From a virus, in IMG/VR virus record IMGVR_UViG_3300048575_000193: DNA of 64,000 nt; one strand, written 5' to 3'. The notes beneath the pieces were generated by a model. It did no database searches and was not told the origin of the DNA. It saw only the letters and a program-made list of their open reading frames with translations. A program made the translations under genes and the position numbers. Every line of letters begins with the position of its first letter. Position 1 is the first letter of the stretch. Shown here piece by piece: positions 3,001-39,998 of the stretch.

Positions 3001-3663
3001 TACGCCTACCTCATTCACGTGCAACACGGTGACGAGGACGTGAACTACCAGGGGTCCTTCACGCATAACACGAAGGTCATCAATGGTGGCGTGTCCACCT
3101 CTTGGGGAGCTTCTCTTCAGCACATGACGCTCCGGGGCATTGGGCCGGACACCTTCATCGTGACATATTCCATGGCATCCTATGGAAACGCCATGTCTAT
3201 CGGTTACGGGCGTGTCTCGGCTCAAGGCGGGTTGTCCTTGGCTATGGGGATGTCCGTAGGGGCTCCGGCATACTATTCGATCCCCTTGGGAACGGCGCCC
3301 CAGCACTACATGCTCCCATTCCGGATCACAGACTACTTCTACGGGATGCTGCAATCCTGTCGTGAGACCGGGGGCAAGGACTACTTGAGGTTCTCGCTGT
3401 ACACCTTCAGCGACACCCGTCCGGGCTTCATTGGTTTCCTCCAATCCGGTGGAAGCCGAGGAGACAGCCGGGTCATAACCTTGCCTGGGGGCCTTCACAC
3501 CTTCGCCTCCACCATCAATGGTGCCCTTCCAGGCCAGCCCATCTACATCACCAGGTACGGCGGCATCACCCCGACAAGGAATCGCGCCGGGGGAGGCATC
3601 TTTGGAATCCTTACCGGGACCGCCAACCAGATCATCGTTCAAAAGCCGGGACGTTCGGTGTAG
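13..3663 (+). CDS. Tail fibre / virion appendage-like protein (frame open to the window edge, may be 5'-truncated)
   Basis: 1216 aa, G/T/S/Y-rich. Four copies of a G(D)L(S/T)G...Q.V...(L/I)(R/Q)G.P...GQ...W....W.P spacer module flank beta-rich domains. Confidence 0.7.
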   Translation: MLGTDELSSSPILTDVNPTSHQVTSPTTEVTFTTTASLGRSVLFESRAYRAGVPIVTTTFSVYVPTAEGLRVGSAQETVEGNPEFGWAAIINPAIRRPSGGGFTAGGDLSGTSTSQVVTGLRGRPLSATDPATGQTYVWDGSMWTPTTISGSFTPGGDLTGDATDQVVSFIRGIESMDPALAADNHYVQIKRKTYYRYPYVIHVDGSDIYVMEGAPGAELASGEATTIWKFHDDGTGTGWTYVAKYDTVTDFPTLYSNADMAWDDNYLYVATYTGNHVAIINKSDMTIAGWCYSDATVLSVCIDGSGGIYAYVTAWANPRIHKFILASCLGQPTFTGTPDTDAKTDASTLIRYGTGSLWLARGWDNAVNQVETSYLTLVGTWTPSDSSNVTSAIYALGSIWVTRWDWSSICTVARVNPGDLTWVDIPMTYGAITQPFVCEVGQDVLGADAIFVSDGGWNYRIGQIDPATNTYYGYYDAPTNHVPYFMASSPAGYLYAAGYSGSYASVNYINLPLGIYSQTPITYPYYLSYADVWQLAGHDLPTATPTNGALLYYNSTSAAWETSGLYGDLTGTYPYPQVAALRGYPVRNSMPLNGQVLTWNSTNWRWEPQTPSSGGFTAGGDLSGSSTSQTVIRIQNRSVSASVPTDGQLLQYSSSSVAWVPTTPNQMTVTLGESASTDNAMYLDESRDSASPGLRAYPVKNSVYEHSVALENATNWTGGPTQPYAYDACALLSDLYLVAYRVNVSGTIYLRLRAIKYTPGTGVTVGTAVDIDVDGASNEVAYVSCTKCSNYNDTYVGGIVAWANPITGRGYILGLTVSGTTITATSVTTFRSTAVVGTGLVNYMVGYPQQGGFVLAWADSSSNTGLSQWGDLYMGSGGPTLTLHGSPVTLTSMAAANIGQIIMRSSGGSGGNIWATFGYNERRVLSGQVSAGSSTELQWYYAGAATETEARVDAYNDYGGTPGYVLTSNLYGTGDFLAGGSAAHIITGTRAGFTDYAYLIHVQHGDEDVNYQGSFTHNTKVINGGVSTSWGASLQHMTLRGIGPDTFIVTYSMASYGNAMSIGYGRVSAQGGLSLAMGMSVGAPAYYSIPLGTAPQHYMLPFRITDYFYGMLQSCRETGGKDYLRFSLYTFSDTRPGFIGFLQSGGSRGDSRVITLPGGLHTFASTINGALPGQPIYITRYGGITPTRNRAGGGIFGILTGTANQIIVQKPGRSV

Positions 3664-7930: not shown

Positions 7931-9514
7931 CTATTTGTAGGATTCGATCGAGGCAACCCAACTCGAGGCGTCGCCGGAGACGAAGGCCCCGATGACGTTG
8001 AAGACCTCGTCCGAGAACCCGCCGACCTGAAGGATCCCAGGACGGCTTGGGACCTGGTGCGTGGACGAAGGCGTCACGTCGATGCAGATCAGCTTGGCCT
8101 TGGGGTTACGCTTGACGATCTGCTGCCACTCCGTGAGCATCCCAGTACCGTGCCCGTACTCACGATCAACCCATGACTCGTAGTCCGAGATGAAGATGAC
8201 CACATCCGGCGCGGCGTTCTCCTTGTTGAGCAAGGCCAGGGGCGCCGAGCAGTTGGTCCCGCCTCCGCCGATGGACGAAAGCTTCTGCGCGTTCGTCATG
8301 ACCGAATCGCGAGGATTGACCTTGACGCCAACCACGCTCTGCTCGAAGGGGATGACCCTCGCAGTCTGGTTGGTCCTCAAGACGCTCGCTGCAACCAAGG
8401 CTGCAACGTCAATGCAGGTGACCTTCGAAGGCGTCTTGCTGCCCTGACGTCCCGTGACGTAGGCTGACATGGAGCCCGAAACGTCCGGGCAAATCACGAC
8501 CGAACCCTCGAACACCGGGATGTTCTTGGTAGCAGCCTCCAAGGCGTCCTGCAACGCCAGGGTGATCTCCGTGGGCATCTCCGTACCCACGTTCTTGTAG
8601 GCCGCCAGGAGCTGGTAGGGGAAGCAGTGTGCCTTCGCAACCTCTTCCGCCGACCCGAGCTTGTCGGCCAGCTTCTTGGTGAGCCTCTTGTCCGAGAAGA
8701 CCCCGTGACGCAGGAACGTGTTGAGGTTCATACGGAGCTGCGTCCACGTAGCCCTCTCCGCAAGCTGCTTCCAGCCCTTCTCCGTGATGCCCTCAACACC
8801 GACGAGCATCTCGAAGGGGACACCCTTCTCCGGGACAGCAACCTTGGCCGGGTCCGCCTTGAATGCCAGGAAGCTCTTGACCTCTTCCGGAACATGCTCC
8901 GACGTCACCAGCTCCTGCCCCTGGAACTTGAACTTGTCCTTCCCAAGCAGGTAGGCATAGAGCGCCGAACGCTCCACCGTCCCCGGAACCGGCCGGATGA
9001 GCTTGATAACGTCCGCCATCGACGGATCGTTACCCGTGGAGTTCGTGAAGACCACTCCGTCCTTACGGCTTTCGAACCAGCTCTGGATCATCCTCTTCGG
9101 ACGCGTTCCGAAGCTCTTGCGCCCCAACGCGCCAGACCGGATGACCTGGACGAAGTTGCGGAGCATCTTGCCGTTGTTGATGACACGCGGGAAGATGGGC
9201 TCGAGGAGCGCCCCATTCATCGCAGCCAGGTAGGCCGCAAGAACCGCAGGCATGTCCTTCATGAAGCCCTTCTCGTGTGCGTAGAGCGCCACCTTCGCAA
9301 CGTACTCCGGATCGCACGCGACGGCTGCGTTCAAGACGGCCTCGAGCTGCATCTTGTCCGACACGTAGTACGTATTGGACAGGCACCCCGTCACCGCCAA
9401 TTGAGCCAGGGCCATCTTTGGCGTCATCTGGTACGCCGCCCCACCCGCCTCGTTGACCGTGTCCGCCGCCTGAACAGACGGCTTCGCCCCTGGGAACAGA
9501 ATCTTGCTTGCCAT
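7931..9514 (-). CDS. rsr: Ro60 / TROVE-vWA RNA-binding protein
   Basis: NEAGGAAY, LAQLAVTGCL, KDMPAVL, LRMNLNTF, MIDAS-like PDVSGSM, GGGTNCS, FISDYESW. SD GGAGG 5 nt before ATG 9514. Confidence 0.93.
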   Translation of the reverse strand: MASKILFPGAKPSVQAADTVNEAGGAAYQMTPKMALAQLAVTGCLSNTYYVSDKMQLEAVLNAAVACDPEYVAKVALYAHEKGFMKDMPAVLAAYLAAMNGALLEPIFPRVINNGKMLRNFVQVIRSGALGRKSFGTRPKRMIQSWFESRKDGVVFTNSTGNDPSMADVIKLIRPVPGTVERSALYAYLLGKDKFKFQGQELVTSEHVPEEVKSFLAFKADPAKVAVPEKGVPFEMLVGVEGITEKGWKQLAERATWTQLRMNLNTFLRHGVFSDKRLTKKLADKLGSAEEVAKAHCFPYQLLAAYKNVGTEMPTEITLALQDALEAATKNIPVFEGSVVICPDVSGSMSAYVTGRQGSKTPSKVTCIDVAALVAASVLRTNQTARVIPFEQSVVGVKVNPRDSVMTNAQKLSSIGGGGTNCSAPLALLNKENAAPDVVIFISDYESWVDREYGHGTGMLTEWQQIVKRNPKAKLICIDVTPSSTHQVPSRPGILQVGGFSDEVFNVIGAFVSGDASSWVASIESYK

Positions 9515-9526
9515 TTGATCCTCCAT

Positions 9527-9588
9527 GCGGCCGAAGCCGCCAAGTGTTGCCAGCATGCCCGTGTGGGCCAAAGTTACGGCACGGGCAT
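9527..9588 (-). promoter_or_regulatory. Two-hairpin structured 5' leader of Ro60
   Basis: 9-bp stem ATGCCCGTG/CACGGGCAT and GCGGC-TTCG-GCCGC tetraloop hairpin abutting the SD. Confidence 0.6.
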
Positions 9589-9623
9589 TACCTACACCGT
9601 TCCGAACCTTGGCGCCAGGGAAT

Positions 9624-9788
9624 TCACCCGCGATCGTTTGATAGCAGGTGCGCAGCCTGGATGATGTAGAAGGCGGCGGCGGCCCCCGTGATGTCATCCT
9701 TAGCCAGGATGCTCACAGCGACTTCGTCGCTGATTCCAAGGTCAAAAGCCTGGGCCATTCTTGCGATTTGGAAGTCGATGCTCTCCAT
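9624..9788 (-). CDS. Small hypothetical protein (MESIDFQ..., alternative start 9902)
   Basis: ATG lies 8 nt after a class I motif. Confidence 0.5.
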   Translation of the reverse strand: MESIDFQIARMAQAFDLGISDEVAVSILAKDDITGAAAAFYIIQAAHLLSNDRG

Positions 9789-12294: not shown

Positions 12295-12386
12295 TGGTGG
12301 GCTCGGAGGGATTCGAACCCTCGTTGGCGGTATTACCCTGCGGCTGGGTTAAAATCAGCTACCTTCGACCACTAGGTGACGAGCCC
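12295..12386 (-). tRNA. Type II tRNA with Tyr-like body and anticodon TTA (ochre suppressor), CCA encoded
   Basis: Acceptor GGGCTCG/CGAGCCC, A73, CCA. D arm ACC/GGT with AGTGG. Anticodon arm GCTGA-TT TTA AC-CCAGC. 20-nt variable arm. T arm GAGGG-TTCGAAT-CCCTC. Confidence 0.9.
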
Positions 12387-13581: not shown

Positions 13582-13907
13582 GCAAGGGCGAGGGGGAGGG
13601 ACCGTGTGATGGCGCGGGCATCCTCCCCCGGAGCGATTGCGATAGCCGTAAGAGCATCCCCAAAGTCTGGCTCCCGAAAGGCGGAGGCTTCAAGCCCCCG
13701 CCTTTTTGCCTTTCGAAGAACCTCCGCAAGCCGCGCCTCGTTTGGAACGGAGAGCAGGGCGAGGTAGTTGCTCTCCGTATGCCAAGCCCGCGCAGTGTCA
13801 GGGTGCTCCACGTTGAATTGCTGGAGCGCGTGAGCTGCTTGGACCGCCTGCGCCCCGGGCGCGAGGTCCGCCCGGGTCACGAGATAGAGCTTGTCATCCG
13901 GGCGCAT
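13578..13907 (-). CDS. PTH2-type peptidyl-tRNA hydrolase-like protein
   Basis: LYLVTRADLAPGAQAVQAAHA ... FREPDFGDALTAIAIAP. Confidence 0.75.
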   Translation of the reverse strand: MRPDDKLYLVTRADLAPGAQAVQAAHALQQFNVEHPDTARAWHTESNYLALLSVPNEARLAEVLRKAKRRGLEASAFREPDFGDALTAIAIAPGEDARAITRSLPLALA

Positions 13908-18974: not shown

Positions 18975-19880
18975 TCACGCTGCCTCTTCTTCCTCGGCTG
19001 CAACCGTTCCTTCGAAGGCCTCAAGGATCTTGGAGGCCGCTCGAGCGATCCGGGTGCCGCATTGCTCGACCAGCTTGGTATCCCCGTGCGCCCAATGCTG
19101 GACGTAGGTGAAGCTGAAGCTGCTGGTGTCTACACCGAGGGCTCGGCACACGATGTAAGCCGTGCTCTCTGCCTCGACTTCCTTCTCCGGTCGGCTGTGG
19201 TAGCCGTCCTCGTCCTTGCCGTGGAGGATCGCGTGTGCGACCTCGTGAACCAAAGTCTGGAACTTCGCGGCTTCGGATCGGCCGTTGTCCATGACGACGA
19301 TCTCCTTGGTGGTCGGCTGGAACCAGCCAAGGGCGTCTGAGGGGTCATGCTTGGCGCGGTCGCGGATCTCAACCCCGCTCACGGCGTCCAGGCTCTTTGC
19401 CATTTTCACAAGCTCGGCCAAGGGGGCGGAGCCGTTGACCTCGGGGAGGCTTACGTTGAGGACTCCATCGGGGGGCTCGGCGCCTTCGGTCTGGTCGTAT
19501 GCGAACACGTAGAGGATCTTGAAGTAGATCCCGCTGACTTGCTCGTCTTCACCCTTGGCGTTCTTCTCGGTGCGCTTCCACACGTTCGGCTGAAGGATCG
19601 CAATCCCCTTCTCACCCTTCTTGACGAAGCGGCCGATGCCCTTCCACCTATTGAAAGTAGCAACCGCGTCCGCGCCGTCACGCTGGCTGGCAACCAGGAT
19701 CTGGTTGCGGAAGCTGAACCGCGCGGGGCTGAACTTTCCTCGCCGGGCCATACTATCCAAGAGGCGCGTCCAATCCTCACTGGTCTGGATGCTTTGGAGA
19801 CCCTCAACCAGGGCGGCCTTAGCGGCATCGATCTTGGCGTTGCGTTCTTCGGCGGTTTGCTTTTGGTAGGTGGTCTTCAT
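18975..19880 (-). CDS. ArdC-like ssDNA-binding / antirestriction protein with HExxH domain
   Basis: FSFRNQILV...VATFNRWKGIGRFVKKGEKGIAILQP, TLVHEVAHAILH, EVEAESTAYIVC. Confidence 0.85.
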   Translation of the reverse strand: MKTTYQKQTAEERNAKIDAAKAALVEGLQSIQTSEDWTRLLDSMARRGKFSPARFSFRNQILVASQRDGADAVATFNRWKGIGRFVKKGEKGIAILQPNVWKRTEKNAKGEDEQVSGIYFKILYVFAYDQTEGAEPPDGVLNVSLPEVNGSAPLAELVKMAKSLDAVSGVEIRDRAKHDPSDALGWFQPTTKEIVVMDNGRSEAAKFQTLVHEVAHAILHGKDEDGYHSRPEKEVEAESTAYIVCRALGVDTSSFSFTYVQHWAHGDTKLVEQCGTRIARAASKILEAFEGTVAAEEEEAA

Positions 19881-19888
19881 GCCCCTGG

Positions 19889-19949
19889 TATGCTCGGGCG
19901 ACCGATCAACAGAAAAGAAACCTGTTGATCCACACCAGGCAGCGGCATA
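19889..19949. promoter_or_regulatory. Back-to-back class I motifs: (-) TTGATC-N8-GAGCATA variant and (+) TTGATC-N12-CGGCATA (19925-19949)
   Basis: Each lies 8 nt before the ATG of a divergent gene, with the same CCAGGGGC spacer. Confidence 0.75.
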
Positions 19950-19957
19950 CCAGGGGC

Positions 19958-20272
19958 ATGATTAACGCCACCCTCGCTACCCTGATCGCCGAAGCCGTCA
20001 CCAACCTCGTCGAAGACCTCCTGGGCGACGACGAGACGACAGCGCCTTGGGCTTCCTTGGACGAGATCGCCAAGGACATCGGATGCGCGACCTACGCCGT
20101 CATCCAAGAGGCGCGCAAGCAGGGCCTCACGGTCGGTGAGCGCGGGGTGCCCCGAAAGGTCCGCACCATCAGCTCGAACAGCCACGACCGCTGGAGCGGG
20201 CCGGGCTCATGCGCGACCCACGGGGGATCTGGCTACGAACAAATCGCGGGCTTTGCAGGAGAAGAGGTCTGA
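19958..20272 (+). CDS. Hypothetical protein, possible HTH
   Basis: SLDEIAKDIGCATYAV. Confidence 0.6.
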   Translation: MINATLATLIAEAVTNLVEDLLGDDETTAPWASLDEIAKDIGCATYAVIQEARKQGLTVGERGVPRKVRTISSNSHDRWSGPGSCATHGGSGYEQIAGFAGEEV

Positions 20273-36464: not shown

Positions 36465-36754
36465 CCGAGGATCTCCTTGAGGTCGCGGAACTTGTTCCCG
36501 CAGGCTATGAGGTCGGCGATCTTGCTGAGAAGGACGGAGGCGTCACACTCGTCAAGCTCCTCCCAAGGACGTTTGGTGCAATCCAAGCGATAGCCCGCTT
36601 GGATCTCCGGCTCGCCGCGATCGTTGTCGCAATGCCTGACGATGAGGGGCGTCGTGTCGCTTGCTACTTCCAAGGTGACGAAGCCGTCGTTGCTCTTCTC
36701 CAAGATAATGAAGCCAACGCAGCCGCAATTGAATCGAACAAGGCGTGTGCTCAT
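36461..36754 (-). CDS. Hypothetical protein
   Basis: 97 aa from MSTRLV. Confidence 0.65.
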   Translation of the reverse strand: MSTRLVRFNCGCVGFIILEKSNDGFVTLEVASDTTPLIVRHCDNDRGEPEIQAGYRLDCTKRPWEELDECDASVLLSKIADLIACGNKFRDLKEILG

Positions 36755-37146
36755 CGTGATGCCTTCCTTTCGGCGTAGGCTATGGCGTCTGCCCAACCCT
36801 CGTCGCTTGCGGGGAAGCGAGCGGCGGGGCCGGGGGCTTCACGGGGCGGCAGGTTGTTACGGTTCTCCCGGAAGTGTGGGTCGATCTTGCGCCACCGGAT
36901 GATCTGTGACTCCGAAACGTCGAGGTAGACCATAACCTTGGTCCCCTCGTAGGAGCATCGTGAGCAGTTGGGATATTTGACCTTGAGGACGACGTGTGGG
37001 CCGCATCGGACCATGTCGATGATCTCGAAGCGCTCGGCGTCGGGCGTCTTCGCTTCTACCTCACGTCGGTATCGGTTTGATGGGTTGTCCGGGTGACTCG
37101 GGTGGCTTGAGCAGTTAGGGTCGCCTGGGGAGTGTCGGCAGGTCAT
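36751..37146 (-). CDS. Hypothetical protein
   Basis: 131 aa from MTCRHS, 8 nt after a class I variant. Confidence 0.75.
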   Translation of the reverse strand: MTCRHSPGDPNCSSHPSHPDNPSNRYRREVEAKTPDAERFEIIDMVRCGPHVVLKVKYPNCSRCSYEGTKVMVYLDVSESQIIRWRKIDPHFRENRNNLPPREAPGPAARFPASDEGWADAIAYAERKASR

Positions 37147-37150
37147 GGTC

Positions 37151-37657
37151 CTAAGACTCCGATGGGCGCTTGGGATCAACACGAATCGGACCCCAGAACA
37201 ACACGTCTTCTCTGAGCTTGTCCAAGGGGAACACGGATGGACCGCAATAGAAGCGGAGCGTGCCCTTGTCTTCCAGGATCTGGGCTACCTCGGGCCATTG
37301 GTGCCCTGTACGCTGGCAGAGATACATGCCTGGCCGCGTTGGGCGGGGGCAGCTAGGAATGCTCGTCGCGGGGTCATTCCAAGGCTCAAGCTCGGGGTTG
37401 AAGACGAATCCGTATGACTTGAGGATGTGGCGAACGATGTCCTCATGGGGGGCGTTCGGGACGTACCACGTGCACTCGGCGTCGGGCACGTCATTGAGCC
37501 AGGGGCAGGTGTTATCGATCAGCTTGATGTGATTGTCGTAGAGGCACCCCTTGGCGTCCCACCATTCTTTGGGGCAAAGGGTGACGCTCACATCGCCGGT
37601 TTCGTCGTCCTTATGGACGCCAAAGTACAGCTCGCTGGGCTTACAAGGTTTGAACAT
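37151..37657 (-). CDS. Hypothetical protein
   Basis: 168 aa. Confidence 0.7.
   Translation of the reverse strand: MFKPCKPSELYFGVHKDDETGDVSVTLCPKEWWDAKGCLYDNHIKLIDNTCPWLNDVPDAECTWYVPNAPHEDIVRHILKSYGFVFNPELEPWNDPATSIPSCPRPTRPGMYLCQRTGHQWPEVAQILEDKGTLRFYCGPSVFPLDKLREDVLFWGPIRVDPKRPSES
37155..37179 (-). promoter_or_regulatory. Class I motif variant TTGATC-N12-CGGAGTC
   Basis: 8 nt before ATG 37146. Confidence 0.6.
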
Positions 37658-37673
37658 GTCTACGGGGATCTCC

Positions 37674-37770
37674 CTAGAATTGGGCGCCCTGTGTGTGTTT
37701 CATGAGGGTAACAATCAAAACCCGTTTACGGATCTCCCGTAACACCATGCACACGAGGCGCTCAAACTAG
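37674..37770 (-). ncRNA. Candidate structured RNA / 5' leader (three-way junction)
   Basis: 5' and 3' ends form a roughly 20-bp interrupted stem enclosing two hairpins. Lies directly after the GGTGTAG box at 37772-37778. Confidence 0.55.
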
Positions 37771-37771
37771 T

Positions 37772-38284
37772 CTACACCGGGAGGGATCGGATCAGCGCGC
37801 CGAGGGCGTCAAGCCCCTCTTGCGTGTCAACATGATAGGCGTCGACGTCGCGTCTAACGTCCTGGCCGCCCGCAAACCCGTCGACGCGGACAACCTCTCG
37901 CCAGGTCTCGTTGAACTCCTTGGCGATTTCCAAGGGGACGGAGCGTTTGACCGTGTTGCAGCACCAGTAGTACCACGCCCGGCGAAACACCCAGCCATCC
38001 GCCTCGGCGGTCAAGTCGTAGAGCGTGACTTCCACGATGTCCTCGGGCTTTACCTCACAGGCACCATGGATGCCCATCCGGGCGAGCTTCCACGGCTCGG
38101 AGCCCTCCTTGTAGCACTTCCGGACCTCCGTCTTCTCGCGAAAGACGACGCCCGGGAAGGCGCGGCGAAGCTCTTCCTTGGCCTTCTCGTTGGCTTCGAA
38201 TGGACGGGGGCCGTCACCGATTACGGGAAGCCCCTTTCCCTTGACACTATTGCAGCTTGGATTGAGACTCATCACATACCTCAT
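37772..38284 (-). CDS. Hypothetical protein
   Basis: 170 aa, stop in a GGTGTAG box. Confidence 0.7.
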   Translation of the reverse strand: MRYVMSLNPSCNSVKGKGLPVIGDGPRPFEANEKAKEELRRAFPGVVFREKTEVRKCYKEGSEPWKLARMGIHGACEVKPEDIVEVTLYDLTAEADGWVFRRAWYYWCCNTVKRSVPLEIAKEFNETWREVVRVDGFAGGQDVRRDVDAYHVDTQEGLDALGALIRSLPV

Positions 38285-38609
38285 TGGGTTTGCGTGTTGT
38301 GTAAACGGTTGCCCTCCAGGCAGAATCGCCTACGGGGCTCCACCGATCGCGCGTTGAGTCGTGGGGCGGAAGGTTCAAGCCTTGGCTCAAGAGGCCCTCG
38401 AGGTTGAGCCTGTGGAAGCATTGCTCAACCAGGTGCTTGCGGGCGCGTAGCTGCGTCCCGACGTCCTCCGCAGTGACGTATGCCCCGTCCTTTTGAGCTA
38501 CAATGATCGCACGGACCGCCGTGAGGAGGCGGTCAAGTCGCCAGCGTCGGTAGGACGGCTTGAGCTTGTCGTGCTTGTCGCCGCAATGGCGACAATGGTG
38601 GCTCTTCAT
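38247..38609 (-). CDS. Hypothetical protein with wHTH-like region
   Basis: 120 aa. Confidence 0.6.
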   Translation of the reverse strand: MKSHHCRHCGDKHDKLKPSYRRWRLDRLLTAVRAIIVAQKDGAYVTAEDVGTQLRARKHLVEQCFHRLNLEGLLSQGLNLPPHDSTRDRWSPVGDSAWRATVYTTRKPNEVCDESQSKLQ

Positions 38610-39568
38610 AGCGACTTGTCCTCGAGCATCTTTCGGAAGAGCGGGCCAAGAACGCGGCTGATGGAGCCCTTATTGAGGGCCTCTTGGAAGGGCTTGTCTG
38701 GAGCGATCTCTTCCCAAACGCTCCGGCATTCCTTGTCGAGGTCGGCGATCATCTCGTCAAGCAGTACGGGCATGTCCTTCATCGTCATGGTGAGGGCCAC
38801 GCCTCGGTCCTGGAGGCGCCCTACGGCGTTCCGGACGCGTCCCTCGATCACACAGGTCAAGGCGAACTCATCGGCGGGCGTAGCCGATCGTGGGCCTTTC
38901 GGGGGCCGTTGCTTCGCGACCTCTGAGAACTTGGCAGCCTTGTGCTTGGCAATGAGCCATTCGCCGAAGACGTCACGGAAGAGCGGATTGCTCCGAATGA
39001 CGATCCCCTCGGCGATGTTGGCGGGGTCGTTGATTCCGTTGTGCTTGGCCTCGAGCGACGGGACCTCGAGGAGCTGGTCGAATGCCTCTTGGCTTGGTGG
39101 GCCTTTGTAGACCAGGTGGGCGCGGTTGAGCCCCATCTTGTCCGTGACTTCGACGAAGAGGTCATAGGTCAAGAAGTTGTCCCCGATCATGATATCGAAG
39201 GCGCGGAAGAGCATCTCAGTCCCCGTCGAATAGCGGATCCCCTTGGCTTTGATCCCAGGGCCGTAGGCTTCACCGTAAACGGTCGCCTCCGAGAAACCGT
39301 AGCTCTTGATGACGTCCCACATGGATTGCAAGAGGTTGGGCCGGGCCTTGAACCAGTTGACGGCGATGCCAAGGGGAAAGGGCTCACCGGGCTTCATCTC
39401 GACGTCATGGGAGCCGAATTGGACCTCGTCCAGGCTTGTCATGCCGCAGGGGAAGTGAATCCGGAAGTTGCTCCCGTGGAGCTTCTCGGTGCAAACGACC
39501 TCCTTGACGGCAAAGAGGTCTTGCCGATCGCGGAGGAGAACAATGGATGGGTATTTGTGAAAGCTCAT
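38606..39568 (-). CDS. RNA ligase 2 (Rnl2) family
   Basis: FHKYPSI, motif I TEKLHGSNF, VYGEAYG, FRAFDI, EGIVIR, IAKHK. Confidence 0.88.
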   Translation of the reverse strand: MSFHKYPSIVLLRDRQDLFAVKEVVCTEKLHGSNFRIHFPCGMTSLDEVQFGSHDVEMKPGEPFPLGIAVNWFKARPNLLQSMWDVIKSYGFSEATVYGEAYGPGIKAKGIRYSTGTEMLFRAFDIMIGDNFLTYDLFVEVTDKMGLNRAHLVYKGPPSQEAFDQLLEVPSLEAKHNGINDPANIAEGIVIRSNPLFRDVFGEWLIAKHKAAKFSEVAKQRPPKGPRSATPADEFALTCVIEGRVRNAVGRLQDRGVALTMTMKDMPVLLDEMIADLDKECRSVWEEIAPDKPFQEALNKGSISRVLGPLFRKMLEDKSL

Positions 39569-39578
39569 AGTGGTCTCC

Positions 39579-39998
39579 TCAGTACACCAGCATCTTGCAG
39601 CATTGACCCTTGGTGTTGCCGTAGTGCCCGCAGTGACGGGCGGATTCACAAGCGATCCAGACCTTTCGGCGGACCTTGTAGTTCTTGTCAGTTACGTCCA
39701 CGAGGCAGGGCACGCTATCAGCCGTGAGGTTGCCTCGGCAGTCAACATTGGCGCCGTAGATTGCCCCTCCGTTGGCTCTCCAAAGGACCTCATGGGCGAA
39801 GTGATAGGCGTTGTCGATCGAGTTGAACATGCACACGGGATCGCCGGGAGCCCAACGCGTCATCCGATCACGTCGAATGCCATCGGCGTCCGTCGAGACT
39901 CCGCAAGACATGGGGTCATCCATGATGGCGAGCGTGTCTTGCAGCGTGTCCCCATTCTGCGTGAGCAGTGACATGATCATGAAAGCCAGGCTAAACAT
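39579..39998 (-). CDS. Hypothetical Cys-rich protein
   Basis: 139 aa. Confidence 0.55.
   Translation of the reverse strand: MFSLAFMIMSLLTQNGDTLQDTLAIMDDPMSCGVSTDADGIRRDRMTRWAPGDPVCMFNSIDNAYHFAHEVLWRANGGAIYGANVDCRGNLTADSVPCLVDVTDKNYKVRRKVWIACESARHCGHYGNTKGQCCKMLVY

Follow-up and report, generated by a model that had tools for sequence, protein, structure and literature searches.

An imperfect 21-bp stem was found in a non-coding gap between two co-directional genes of a jumbo phage. The stem begins at the transcription start predicted from a promoter-like GGTGTAG box and closes just before the Shine-Dalgarno (SD) site of an orphan gene. We tentatively regard this element as a structured 5' leader of about 105 nt that belongs to the orphan gene at 37151-37657 and whose terminal stem may affect the fate of the mRNA; this reading is held with less than even confidence. 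Among the known kinds of RNA used for comparison, the best functional analogy would be a 5'-terminal stem-loop that protects an mRNA, and an RNase III site in a read-through RNA would come a close second.

The stretch of DNA analysed (the window) comprises 64 kb of a virus record of 312 kb with a G+C content of 60%; it corresponds to G000:C1:231008-295007 and is reversed relative to the genome. A VWA structural protein of 786 aa, the gene for which lies in another part of the genome, shares 36% identity with proteins of Ackermannviridae phages; the virus is therefore classed by its sequence as a jumbo phage with a distant link to the T4 superfamily. The locus is organised as follows.

37658 to 37771: non-coding gap of 114 nt between two minus-strand, co-directional genes, holding the element
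37675 to 37771, minus strand: the 97-nt element
37151 to 37657, minus strand: downstream orphan gene, 168 aa in two small domains, presumed to be the leader's cargo
37772 to 38284, minus strand: upstream gene of 170 aa (phrog_35792), with a likely true start at the ATG at 38272
38606 to 39649: Rnl-type RNA ligase, two genes upstream of the element
7931 to 9697, minus strand: phage Ro60 with TROVE and vWA domains, about 28 kb from the element

The genome is compact, with a median distance of 9 nt between crudely called genes, and gaps as large as this one are rare in it. The G+C content of the element is about 0.50, against 0.60 for the whole genome, and CTAG flanks it at both ends.

When the minus strand of the 97-nt element was folded with RNAfold, a minimum free energy (MFE) of -33.7 kcal/mol was obtained, positions 3-26 of the element (37746-37769) being paired with positions 68-97 (37675-37704). 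An earlier note on this DNA had proposed a pairing of about 20 bp with few mismatches, and such a pairing is present: the outer stem, of 21 bp with a single G-U, contains two 1x1 mismatches, one small asymmetric loop and a bulge of 5 nt. The parts of the fold are listed below.

37746 to 37769, minus strand: 5' arm of the outer stem, found in the RNAfold MFE and centroid structures; from 37761 downward it lies inside the predicted primary transcript
37724 to 37745, minus strand: interior hairpin 1 of the three-way-junction model (structure energy -33.0), containing GGGAGAUCC
37706 to 37723, minus strand: interior hairpin 2 of the three-way-junction model (GGGU, 10-nt loop, ACCC), swapped for other pairing in the MFE fold
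37675 to 37704, minus strand: 3' arm of the outer stem (RNAfold)

The two interior hairpins, which with the outer stem were said to make a three-way junction, can indeed be formed at -33.0 kcal/mol, but this arrangement is not unique: a rod-like interior, formed by pairing of GAGAUCCG with CGGGUUUU, reaches -33.7 kcal/mol. The outer stem alone is robust, and the three-way junction and the rod-like interior tie. A stability above that of shuffled sequences was obtained for the element by itself (z -3.1 against 200 dinucleotide shuffles, one of which was equally stable) but not in a wider context, since a 151-nt piece including the flanks gave a z of only -1.0. Relative to 6,400 real 100-nt windows of the 64 kb, with correction for G+C content, the optimally registered element lay at -1.9 to -2.7 SD, that is, in the top 0.2-2%, and by stability it does not rank within the first 40 of the 100-nt windows. 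The pairing is real, yet unexceptional by energy alone. Furthermore, the opposite (plus) strand folds at -36.2 kcal/mol with a z of -4.4 and is stabler than the minus strand, one G-U being present in each. As folding is no weaker on the plus strand, the minus-strand RNA is not marked as the selected molecule, and the energy does not tell which strand is relevant or whether the element matters as RNA or as DNA.

A second pairing, mutually exclusive with the first, had also been put forward. The complementarity itself exists: ACGGGAGAUC (37731-37740) can pair with GAUCCCCGU (37662-37670) over 9 bp with one bulged A, giving a duplex of -12 kcal/mol. However, the best fold that contains this duplex reaches -28.5 kcal/mol against an MFE of -38.4 kcal/mol for the leader, and at about 10 kcal/mol above the MFE it is uncompetitive. 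The 3' partner (37662-37670) is moreover the last part to be transcribed. The 9-bp complementarity exists because a near-palindromic word, GGGAGAUCC, is repeated, one copy being located in interior hairpin 1 and the other at the SD site. A role of this word as a decoy SD, or its origin by duplication, was considered and rejected, as the 9-nt repeat is not significant in local alignment (62 of 1000 shuffles score as well) and GGAGATC is frequent in the genome, mainly within coding sequence. Taken together, the stem and the complementarity described in the earlier note were recovered, while the junction and the switch did not hold as stated.

The observation that the element begins directly after a GGTGTAG box was borne out, and this box led to a predicted transcription start.

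37772 to 37778, minus strand: GGTGTAG box preceded by a C, a predicted phage promoter element, the TAG of which is the stop codon of the upstream ORF
37762 to 37764, minus strand: predicted transcription start, at bases of about +9/+10 after the box, where the A of the ATG sits in the leaderless class

In the 64-kb window, GGTGTAG is present in 31 copies against 4.45 expected, an enrichment of about 7-fold that was matched by none of 100 shuffles; the 312-kb genome contains 150 copies. Examples of (C/T)GGTGTAG in the window are found at 3657, 9592, 14826, 24059, 30199, 33237, 41233 and 58521. When the distance from the box to the start codon was counted for ORFs of at least 45 aa, 52 of the 150 copies had a start codon exactly 8-9 nt after the box, with an SD-like word in the spacer of just six of these, and the consensus of this class was (C/T)GGTGTAG-N5-6-(G)GC-ATG. 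Spacers of 6-12 nt, the 8-9-nt class included, were found for 67 of the 150 copies. SD-led leaders of 13-60 nt followed the box in 16 copies, and longer ones in about 12. As at 37772-37778, the TAG in 33 of the 150 copies also serves a real ORF upstream as its stop codon. On account of the enrichment and of the 8-9-nt spacing to start codons that mostly lack an SD, GGTGTAG is probably a compact one-box promoter for leaderless or near-leaderless mRNAs.

From the same box-to-ATG spacing of 8-9 nt, we infer that transcription of the element begins at 37762-37764. This predicted +1 lies on the opening bases of the GAGCGCC arm, at the base of the stem. The RNAs folded from each of these positions keep the stem, with 0-2 nucleotides left unpaired at the 5' end, and the lowest 6 bp of the outer stem, which lie upstream of the predicted +1, would exist in read-through RNA only. 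No sigma-70-type promoter was found on the element's strand, and a search for intrinsic terminators in 36500-39000 gave no terminator-like site and no U-tract. At the other end, the element stops 1 nt before the GGGAG of the SD, and the stem closes 7 nt before it.

37670 to 37674, minus strand: GGGAG SD serving the downstream gene, at 12 nt from its ATG; when the leader was folded from four candidate starts, it lay outside the main stem, in a weak local hairpin

The following course of events is proposed. The CGGTGTAG box, in which the upstream gene ends, would act as a phage-specific, -10-like promoter, and transcription would begin 8-9 nt past it, on the first one or two bases of the GAGCGCC arm. 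As it emerges, the RNA would at once form the long imperfect stem, with 0-2 unpaired 5' nucleotides. This 5'-terminal stem may shield the mRNA against 5'-end-dependent decay, either by RppH and then RNase E or by RNase J, and would set the amount of orphan protein made, the start site staying largely outside the main helix. The pairing, the box statistics and the geometry are observed; the transcription start, and any effect of the stem on mRNA stability or on translation, are inferred.

The leader reading is favoured because the element occupies a true 114-nt non-coding gap of low G+C content in a compact genome, because a promoter-like box precedes the element and a GGGAG SD follows it, and because neither a U-tract terminator nor a sigma-70-type promoter is found on the element's strand. 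It is also favoured because the stem is kept in the MFE structures that start from a +1 at 37762-37764, with at most 2 unpaired 5' nucleotides, because a second leader of like design exists in the genome (z -4.2, see below) and because protection by 5'-terminal stem-loops is established in bacteria. It is weakened because the plus strand is as stable, because the element ranks only in the top 0.2-2% of windows and because most other SD-led leaders behind the box are not unusually structured. The inference of a leader made in the earlier note is supported by the geometry of the 114-nt co-directional gap, with its promoter-like box before the element and its SD 1 nt after it; the more specific readings, as a riboswitch or a Y RNA, were left without support.

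Protective 5'-terminal stem-loops were reportedly described by Emory, Bouvet and Belasco in 1992, by Bouvet and Belasco in 1992 and by Arnold et al. in 1998, and the stabilising leaders of ompA and papA are said to go back to Emory, Bouvet and Belasco in 1992 and to Bricker and Belasco in 1999. The present element would resemble the ompA and papA stem-loops in that its stem lies 0-2 nt from the predicted 5' end, in that an accessible ribosome-binding region follows, and in acting in cis and independently of sequence. In contrast to the short ompA hairpin, it has 15-21 bp and an interior of about 40 nt, and its transcript end is a predicted one. The early RNA of T7 carries a set of intergenic RNase III processing sites. 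Like these, the element forms an irregular helix of about two turns between co-directional genes, without a U-tract; unlike them, it belongs to a genome with one or two such stems, has no sequence relation to the T7 sites, and its cleavage is putative. The papers on protective stem-loops named above are listed in PMC3997798, which also treats RNase III in mRNA leaders.

Every SD-led leader located behind a GGTGTAG box was folded for the whole genome. Most of them were not unusually structured, so that a stem is not a general requirement for such leaders. One further structured leader, outside the window, was obtained.

G000:C1:5547 to 5728 (L113:148-329): second structured leader with its box; the leader proper is at G000:C1:5562-5728 (L113:163-329) and measures 167 nt

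This sequence shows, in order, the box, 9 nt, a 15-bp stem that starts with GAGC and has structure inside it, another hairpin, the SD and the ATG. It folds at -63.6 kcal/mol with a z of -4.2, none of 200 shuffles being as stable, and the gene behind it encodes 286 aa, with a GC3 of 0.84 and no PHROG match. The two leaders have no common sequence, and covariance model R1 does not detect the second one. Another candidate, at genome position 215604, was rejected, being in frame with the downstream ORF and probably coding; a third, at 225232, was set aside as uncertain, as an earlier TTG start is possible there. Separately, a 218-aa ORF with a C-terminal DUF1653 domain was noticed outside the window (G000:C1:214941-215596; L114:141-797, minus strand). 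Its N-terminal part carries cysteine motifs of the GC..K...GLC..H type and has a strong RNA fold (z -3.3), though it is probably coding.

When the whole window was searched with Rfam 15 at the gathering score, only a tRNA at 12298-12386 was detected and nothing in the element. At E<=10, the region 37300-38100 gave a sole, spurious match to a snoRNA on the plus strand (37778-37845; 18 bits against a gathering score of 50), outside the element. The earlier note had recognised no known family, and this agrees with the absence of any Rfam 15 match to the element even at E<=10. The same absence speaks against a riboswitch-like leader, as does the switch partner, which lies about 10 kcal/mol uphill.

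A test of binding to the phage Ro60 had been suggested as well. Y RNAs are recognised by being encoded no more than 4 kb from Ro60 and on its strand, by GNCGAAN0-1G in the stem near the 5' end and by a tRNA-like module (PMC4201824), and the Ro60 of the Thermus phage phiLo binds Y-like RNAs of its own genome, Yrl1 and Yrl2, which carry a CGAA motif (PMC12135203). The element is like the Y RNAs YrlA and Yrl1/Yrl2, of 80-130 nt, in having a long stem formed by its ends around a large interior, and in that Ro60 is encoded by the phage. Unlike them, it lies about 28 kb from Ro60, though on the same strand, and has no independent 3' end. CGAA does not occur on the minus strand of 37658-37790, so that GNCGAAN0-1G is absent. 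A tRNA-like T/D module was not detected either: Rfam gave no tRNA in 37300-38100 at E<=10, and ARAGORN found nothing in the locus that covers the element (L001). Judged by its sequence, the element lacks each of the Y RNA characters listed above and shares just the generic outline, and a Y RNA-type partner of Ro60 is thus not supported. No Rfam family was found in the region next to Ro60 at E<=5.

The PeSL cassettes of T4-type phages are intergenic, about 100 bp long and present in about 50 copies per genome with conserved sequence; they combine sigma-70-like early promoters with short G/C hairpins that terminate transcription (PMC2839356, PMC4122927). Their layout is found again in the element, which is likewise about 100 bp long and shows the order of stop codon, promoter, stem-loop, SD and start of an orphan gene. 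In contrast to the PeSL family, the element is present in single copy, is preceded by a predicted one-box promoter of the phage and lacks the features of a terminator.

Relatives of the element were sought at the level of DNA, RNA and neighbouring proteins. No close DNA relatives were found among 50,697 phage records by megablast and blastn, and within the 312-kb genome the element is single copy, BLAST and covariance model R1 matching the element alone. A stem word of 19 nt with 17 specified bases gave two unrelated matches in viral contigs, both in coding sequence; the peptide ERLVCM, common to one of these, was judged to be a chance finding. With a two-arm pattern, one unrelated Streptomyces site was obtained from 185,579 species genomes. 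Neither the R1 RNA nor the downstream protein was found in five other jumbo-phage records, and a search for syntenic loci anchored on the RNA ligase gave nothing. The downstream protein, alone or together with its relative P0016, yielded no loci in viral contigs, and none was found in the phage records. With the upstream protein, 21 viral and 80 metagenome loci were retrieved; full-length relatives (34-54% identity) occur at 13 loci, and the C-terminal domain at about 90 more. No RNA resembling the element was detected at these loci by blastn, nhmmer or covariance model R1, and the relatives of the upstream gene are followed by unrelated sequence, other genes or tRNAs.

The flanking proteins were also examined. 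The downstream gene has G+C contents of 0.57, 0.43 and 0.75 at codon positions 1, 2 and 3, and its 168-aa product has no Pfam or PHROG match. It is confined to a cluster of at least 99% identity (four contigs) and one full-length relative with 56% identity, P0016. The gene call of P0002 begins with MDM, which would agree with one GTA-to-GTG change at 37661, a position outside the stem. The protein is a fusion of two domains, at about residues 3-95 and 97-165, each of which also occurs alone in short metagenomic proteins (38 matches). Its AlphaFold model has a pLDDT of 89.7, and the C-terminal domain is modelled as a small beta-barrel. A fold search with the model gave small beta-barrel proteins with a best Z of 4.6 and nothing at Z>=5. 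For the upstream protein (pLDDT 78.4), the best match was the C-terminal DNA-binding domain of T4 MotA (Z 6.2, rmsd 4.0 over 102 residues), which is below a meaningful level. A search of the ESM Atlas gave no usable match. Both flanking proteins are confidently modelled, but for neither was any structural match convincing, and they give no hint of a protein partner for the RNA. The family of the upstream protein has the conserved motifs GW.FRRAWYYW ... VRVDGFAGG ... YHVD, and in other phages its members often lie among tRNA genes (loci L024, L029 and L002): at L024 a tRNA-Ile is located 58 nt downstream of the relative, L029 has four tRNAs, and in Ralstonia phage RP12 a tRNA-Asn lies upstream of the relative.

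Other explanations have to be weighed against a leader. A functionless inverted repeat, arisen by chance or left as a relic in a gap produced by gene shuffling around the orphan gene, is somewhat unlikely but deserves serious attention. It would account for the modest stability relative to real windows (top 0.2-2%; z -1.0 with the flanks), for the equally good folding of both strands, for the single copy with nothing similar in the databases searched, and for a downstream gene that is lineage-restricted save for one 56% relative, next to an upstream gene whose relatives have other neighbours downstream. It does not readily explain why the beginning of the stem and the predicted +1 coincide exactly, why the stem stops shortly before the SD, why a second leader has the same layout, or why gaps this large are rare in the genome. 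An RNase III-type site, at which the helix would be cut in a read-through RNA of the RNA-ligase operon, splitting the upstream and orphan messages and leaving protective hairpin ends, is unlikely. With about 2.2 turns (21 bp over 24 positions), the helix has the length and irregularity of a substrate, lies between co-directional genes without a U-tract and has its lowest 6 bp in read-through RNA only; on the other hand, there is no sequence similarity to known sites, and about two such stems are present in this genome, against a set in T7. As both strands fold equally well and CTAG flanks the arms, of about 17 bp, at both ends, an element acting at the DNA level was also considered, either as an operator-like dyad below the promoter or as a miniature inverted-repeat insertion with an IS630/Correia-type layout. 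This is very unlikely, since about 45-55 bp separate the arms, a long distance for an operator, the phage has a single copy, and the searches of 185,579 species genomes and of viral contigs returned one unrelated Streptomyces match and chance coding matches, respectively.

Further alternatives concern the RNA as such or a peptide. A small RNA, stand-alone or derived from the leader, that would bind a protein in trans, for example the phage Ro60 or the nearby RNA ligase, is very doubtful. Its length of about 97 nt, with a long stem joining the 5' and 3' ends around a large interior, corresponds to the generic outline of Y RNAs (PMC4201824). The phage also encodes a Ro60 with TROVE and vWA domains next to which no Rfam family is seen at E<=5, and the Ro60 of a Thermus phage binds Y-like RNAs of its own genome (PMC12135203). 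Against this stand the distance of about 28 kb from Ro60, compared with a published limit of 4 kb, the absence of CGAA/GNCGAA and of a tRNA-like module, and the lack of a terminator that could release the RNA, the element running directly into the SD and the gene. A stable RNA of about 100 nt, released or independently transcribed, that would partner Ro60, the RNA ligase or a protein of the tRNA neighbourhood and be Y-like without the sequence hallmarks, is scarcely probable. The gap might instead encode a peptide of 24 residues (37674-37748), or an upstream ORF that opens the stem and is coupled to the downstream start.

ATG at 37748, TAG at 37674-37676, minus strand: 24-codon ORF inside the element, read from the sequence, without an SD

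This ORF has an intact frame from ATG to TAG, a stop that overlaps the SD region (the UAG abuts GGGAG) and, by hand count, a GC3 minus GC2 of about 0.33, as in real genes. It is nevertheless quite improbable that it is used, since it has no SD, its ATG lies 23 nt from the box, outside both the 8-9-nt leaderless and the SD-led classes, and is buried in the stem, 9 of the 24 codons have A or T in third position, and a frame of such length is easily open by chance. Finally, a ligand-sensing riboswitch would alternate between two states, the stem in one and hairpin 1 paired with the segment after the SD in the other. The two pairings are mutually exclusive and adjoin the SD, but the second state is less stable by 10 kcal/mol, its 3' partner is the last part to be made, the complementarity stems from the repeated near-palindromic GGGAGAUCC in a genome where GGAGATC is common, and there is no Rfam match; this reading is extremely improbable.

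If the structured-leader reading is true, the phage makes mostly leaderless mRNAs and gives a few genes long, stem-capped leaders. This would be a simple way of setting message lifetime gene by gene, and the stems would provide a marker for transcript ends in uncultured phages. The understanding of RNA regulation would be unchanged by this reading, and the GGTGTAG promoter class is a more general result than the element itself. In addition, the absence of the Y RNA characters removes a tempting but unsupported link between the element and the phage Ro60.

Some other features of the window were recorded. An intact tRNA with a long variable arm and the anticodon UUA (ochre suppressor) lies at 12295-12386 on the minus strand, 2.6 kb upstream of Ro60 and on the same strand; it scores 53 bits with the Rfam tRNA model and is called tRNA-Stop by ARAGORN. 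TCATGCCCCTGGTATGC and its complement, at 19877-19893 and 19945-19961, make up a perfect inverted repeat of 17 bp, the two copies being 51 nt apart, and form the most stable 100-nt window of the 64 kb (-53.9 kcal/mol, 4.8 SD below expectation). At 13677-13705, a compact G+C hairpin with AAA/TTT flanks (AAAGGCGGAGGCTT / AAGCCCCCGCCTTT) resembles a bidirectional intrinsic terminator; the phage thus seems to use ordinary terminators elsewhere, unlike at the element.
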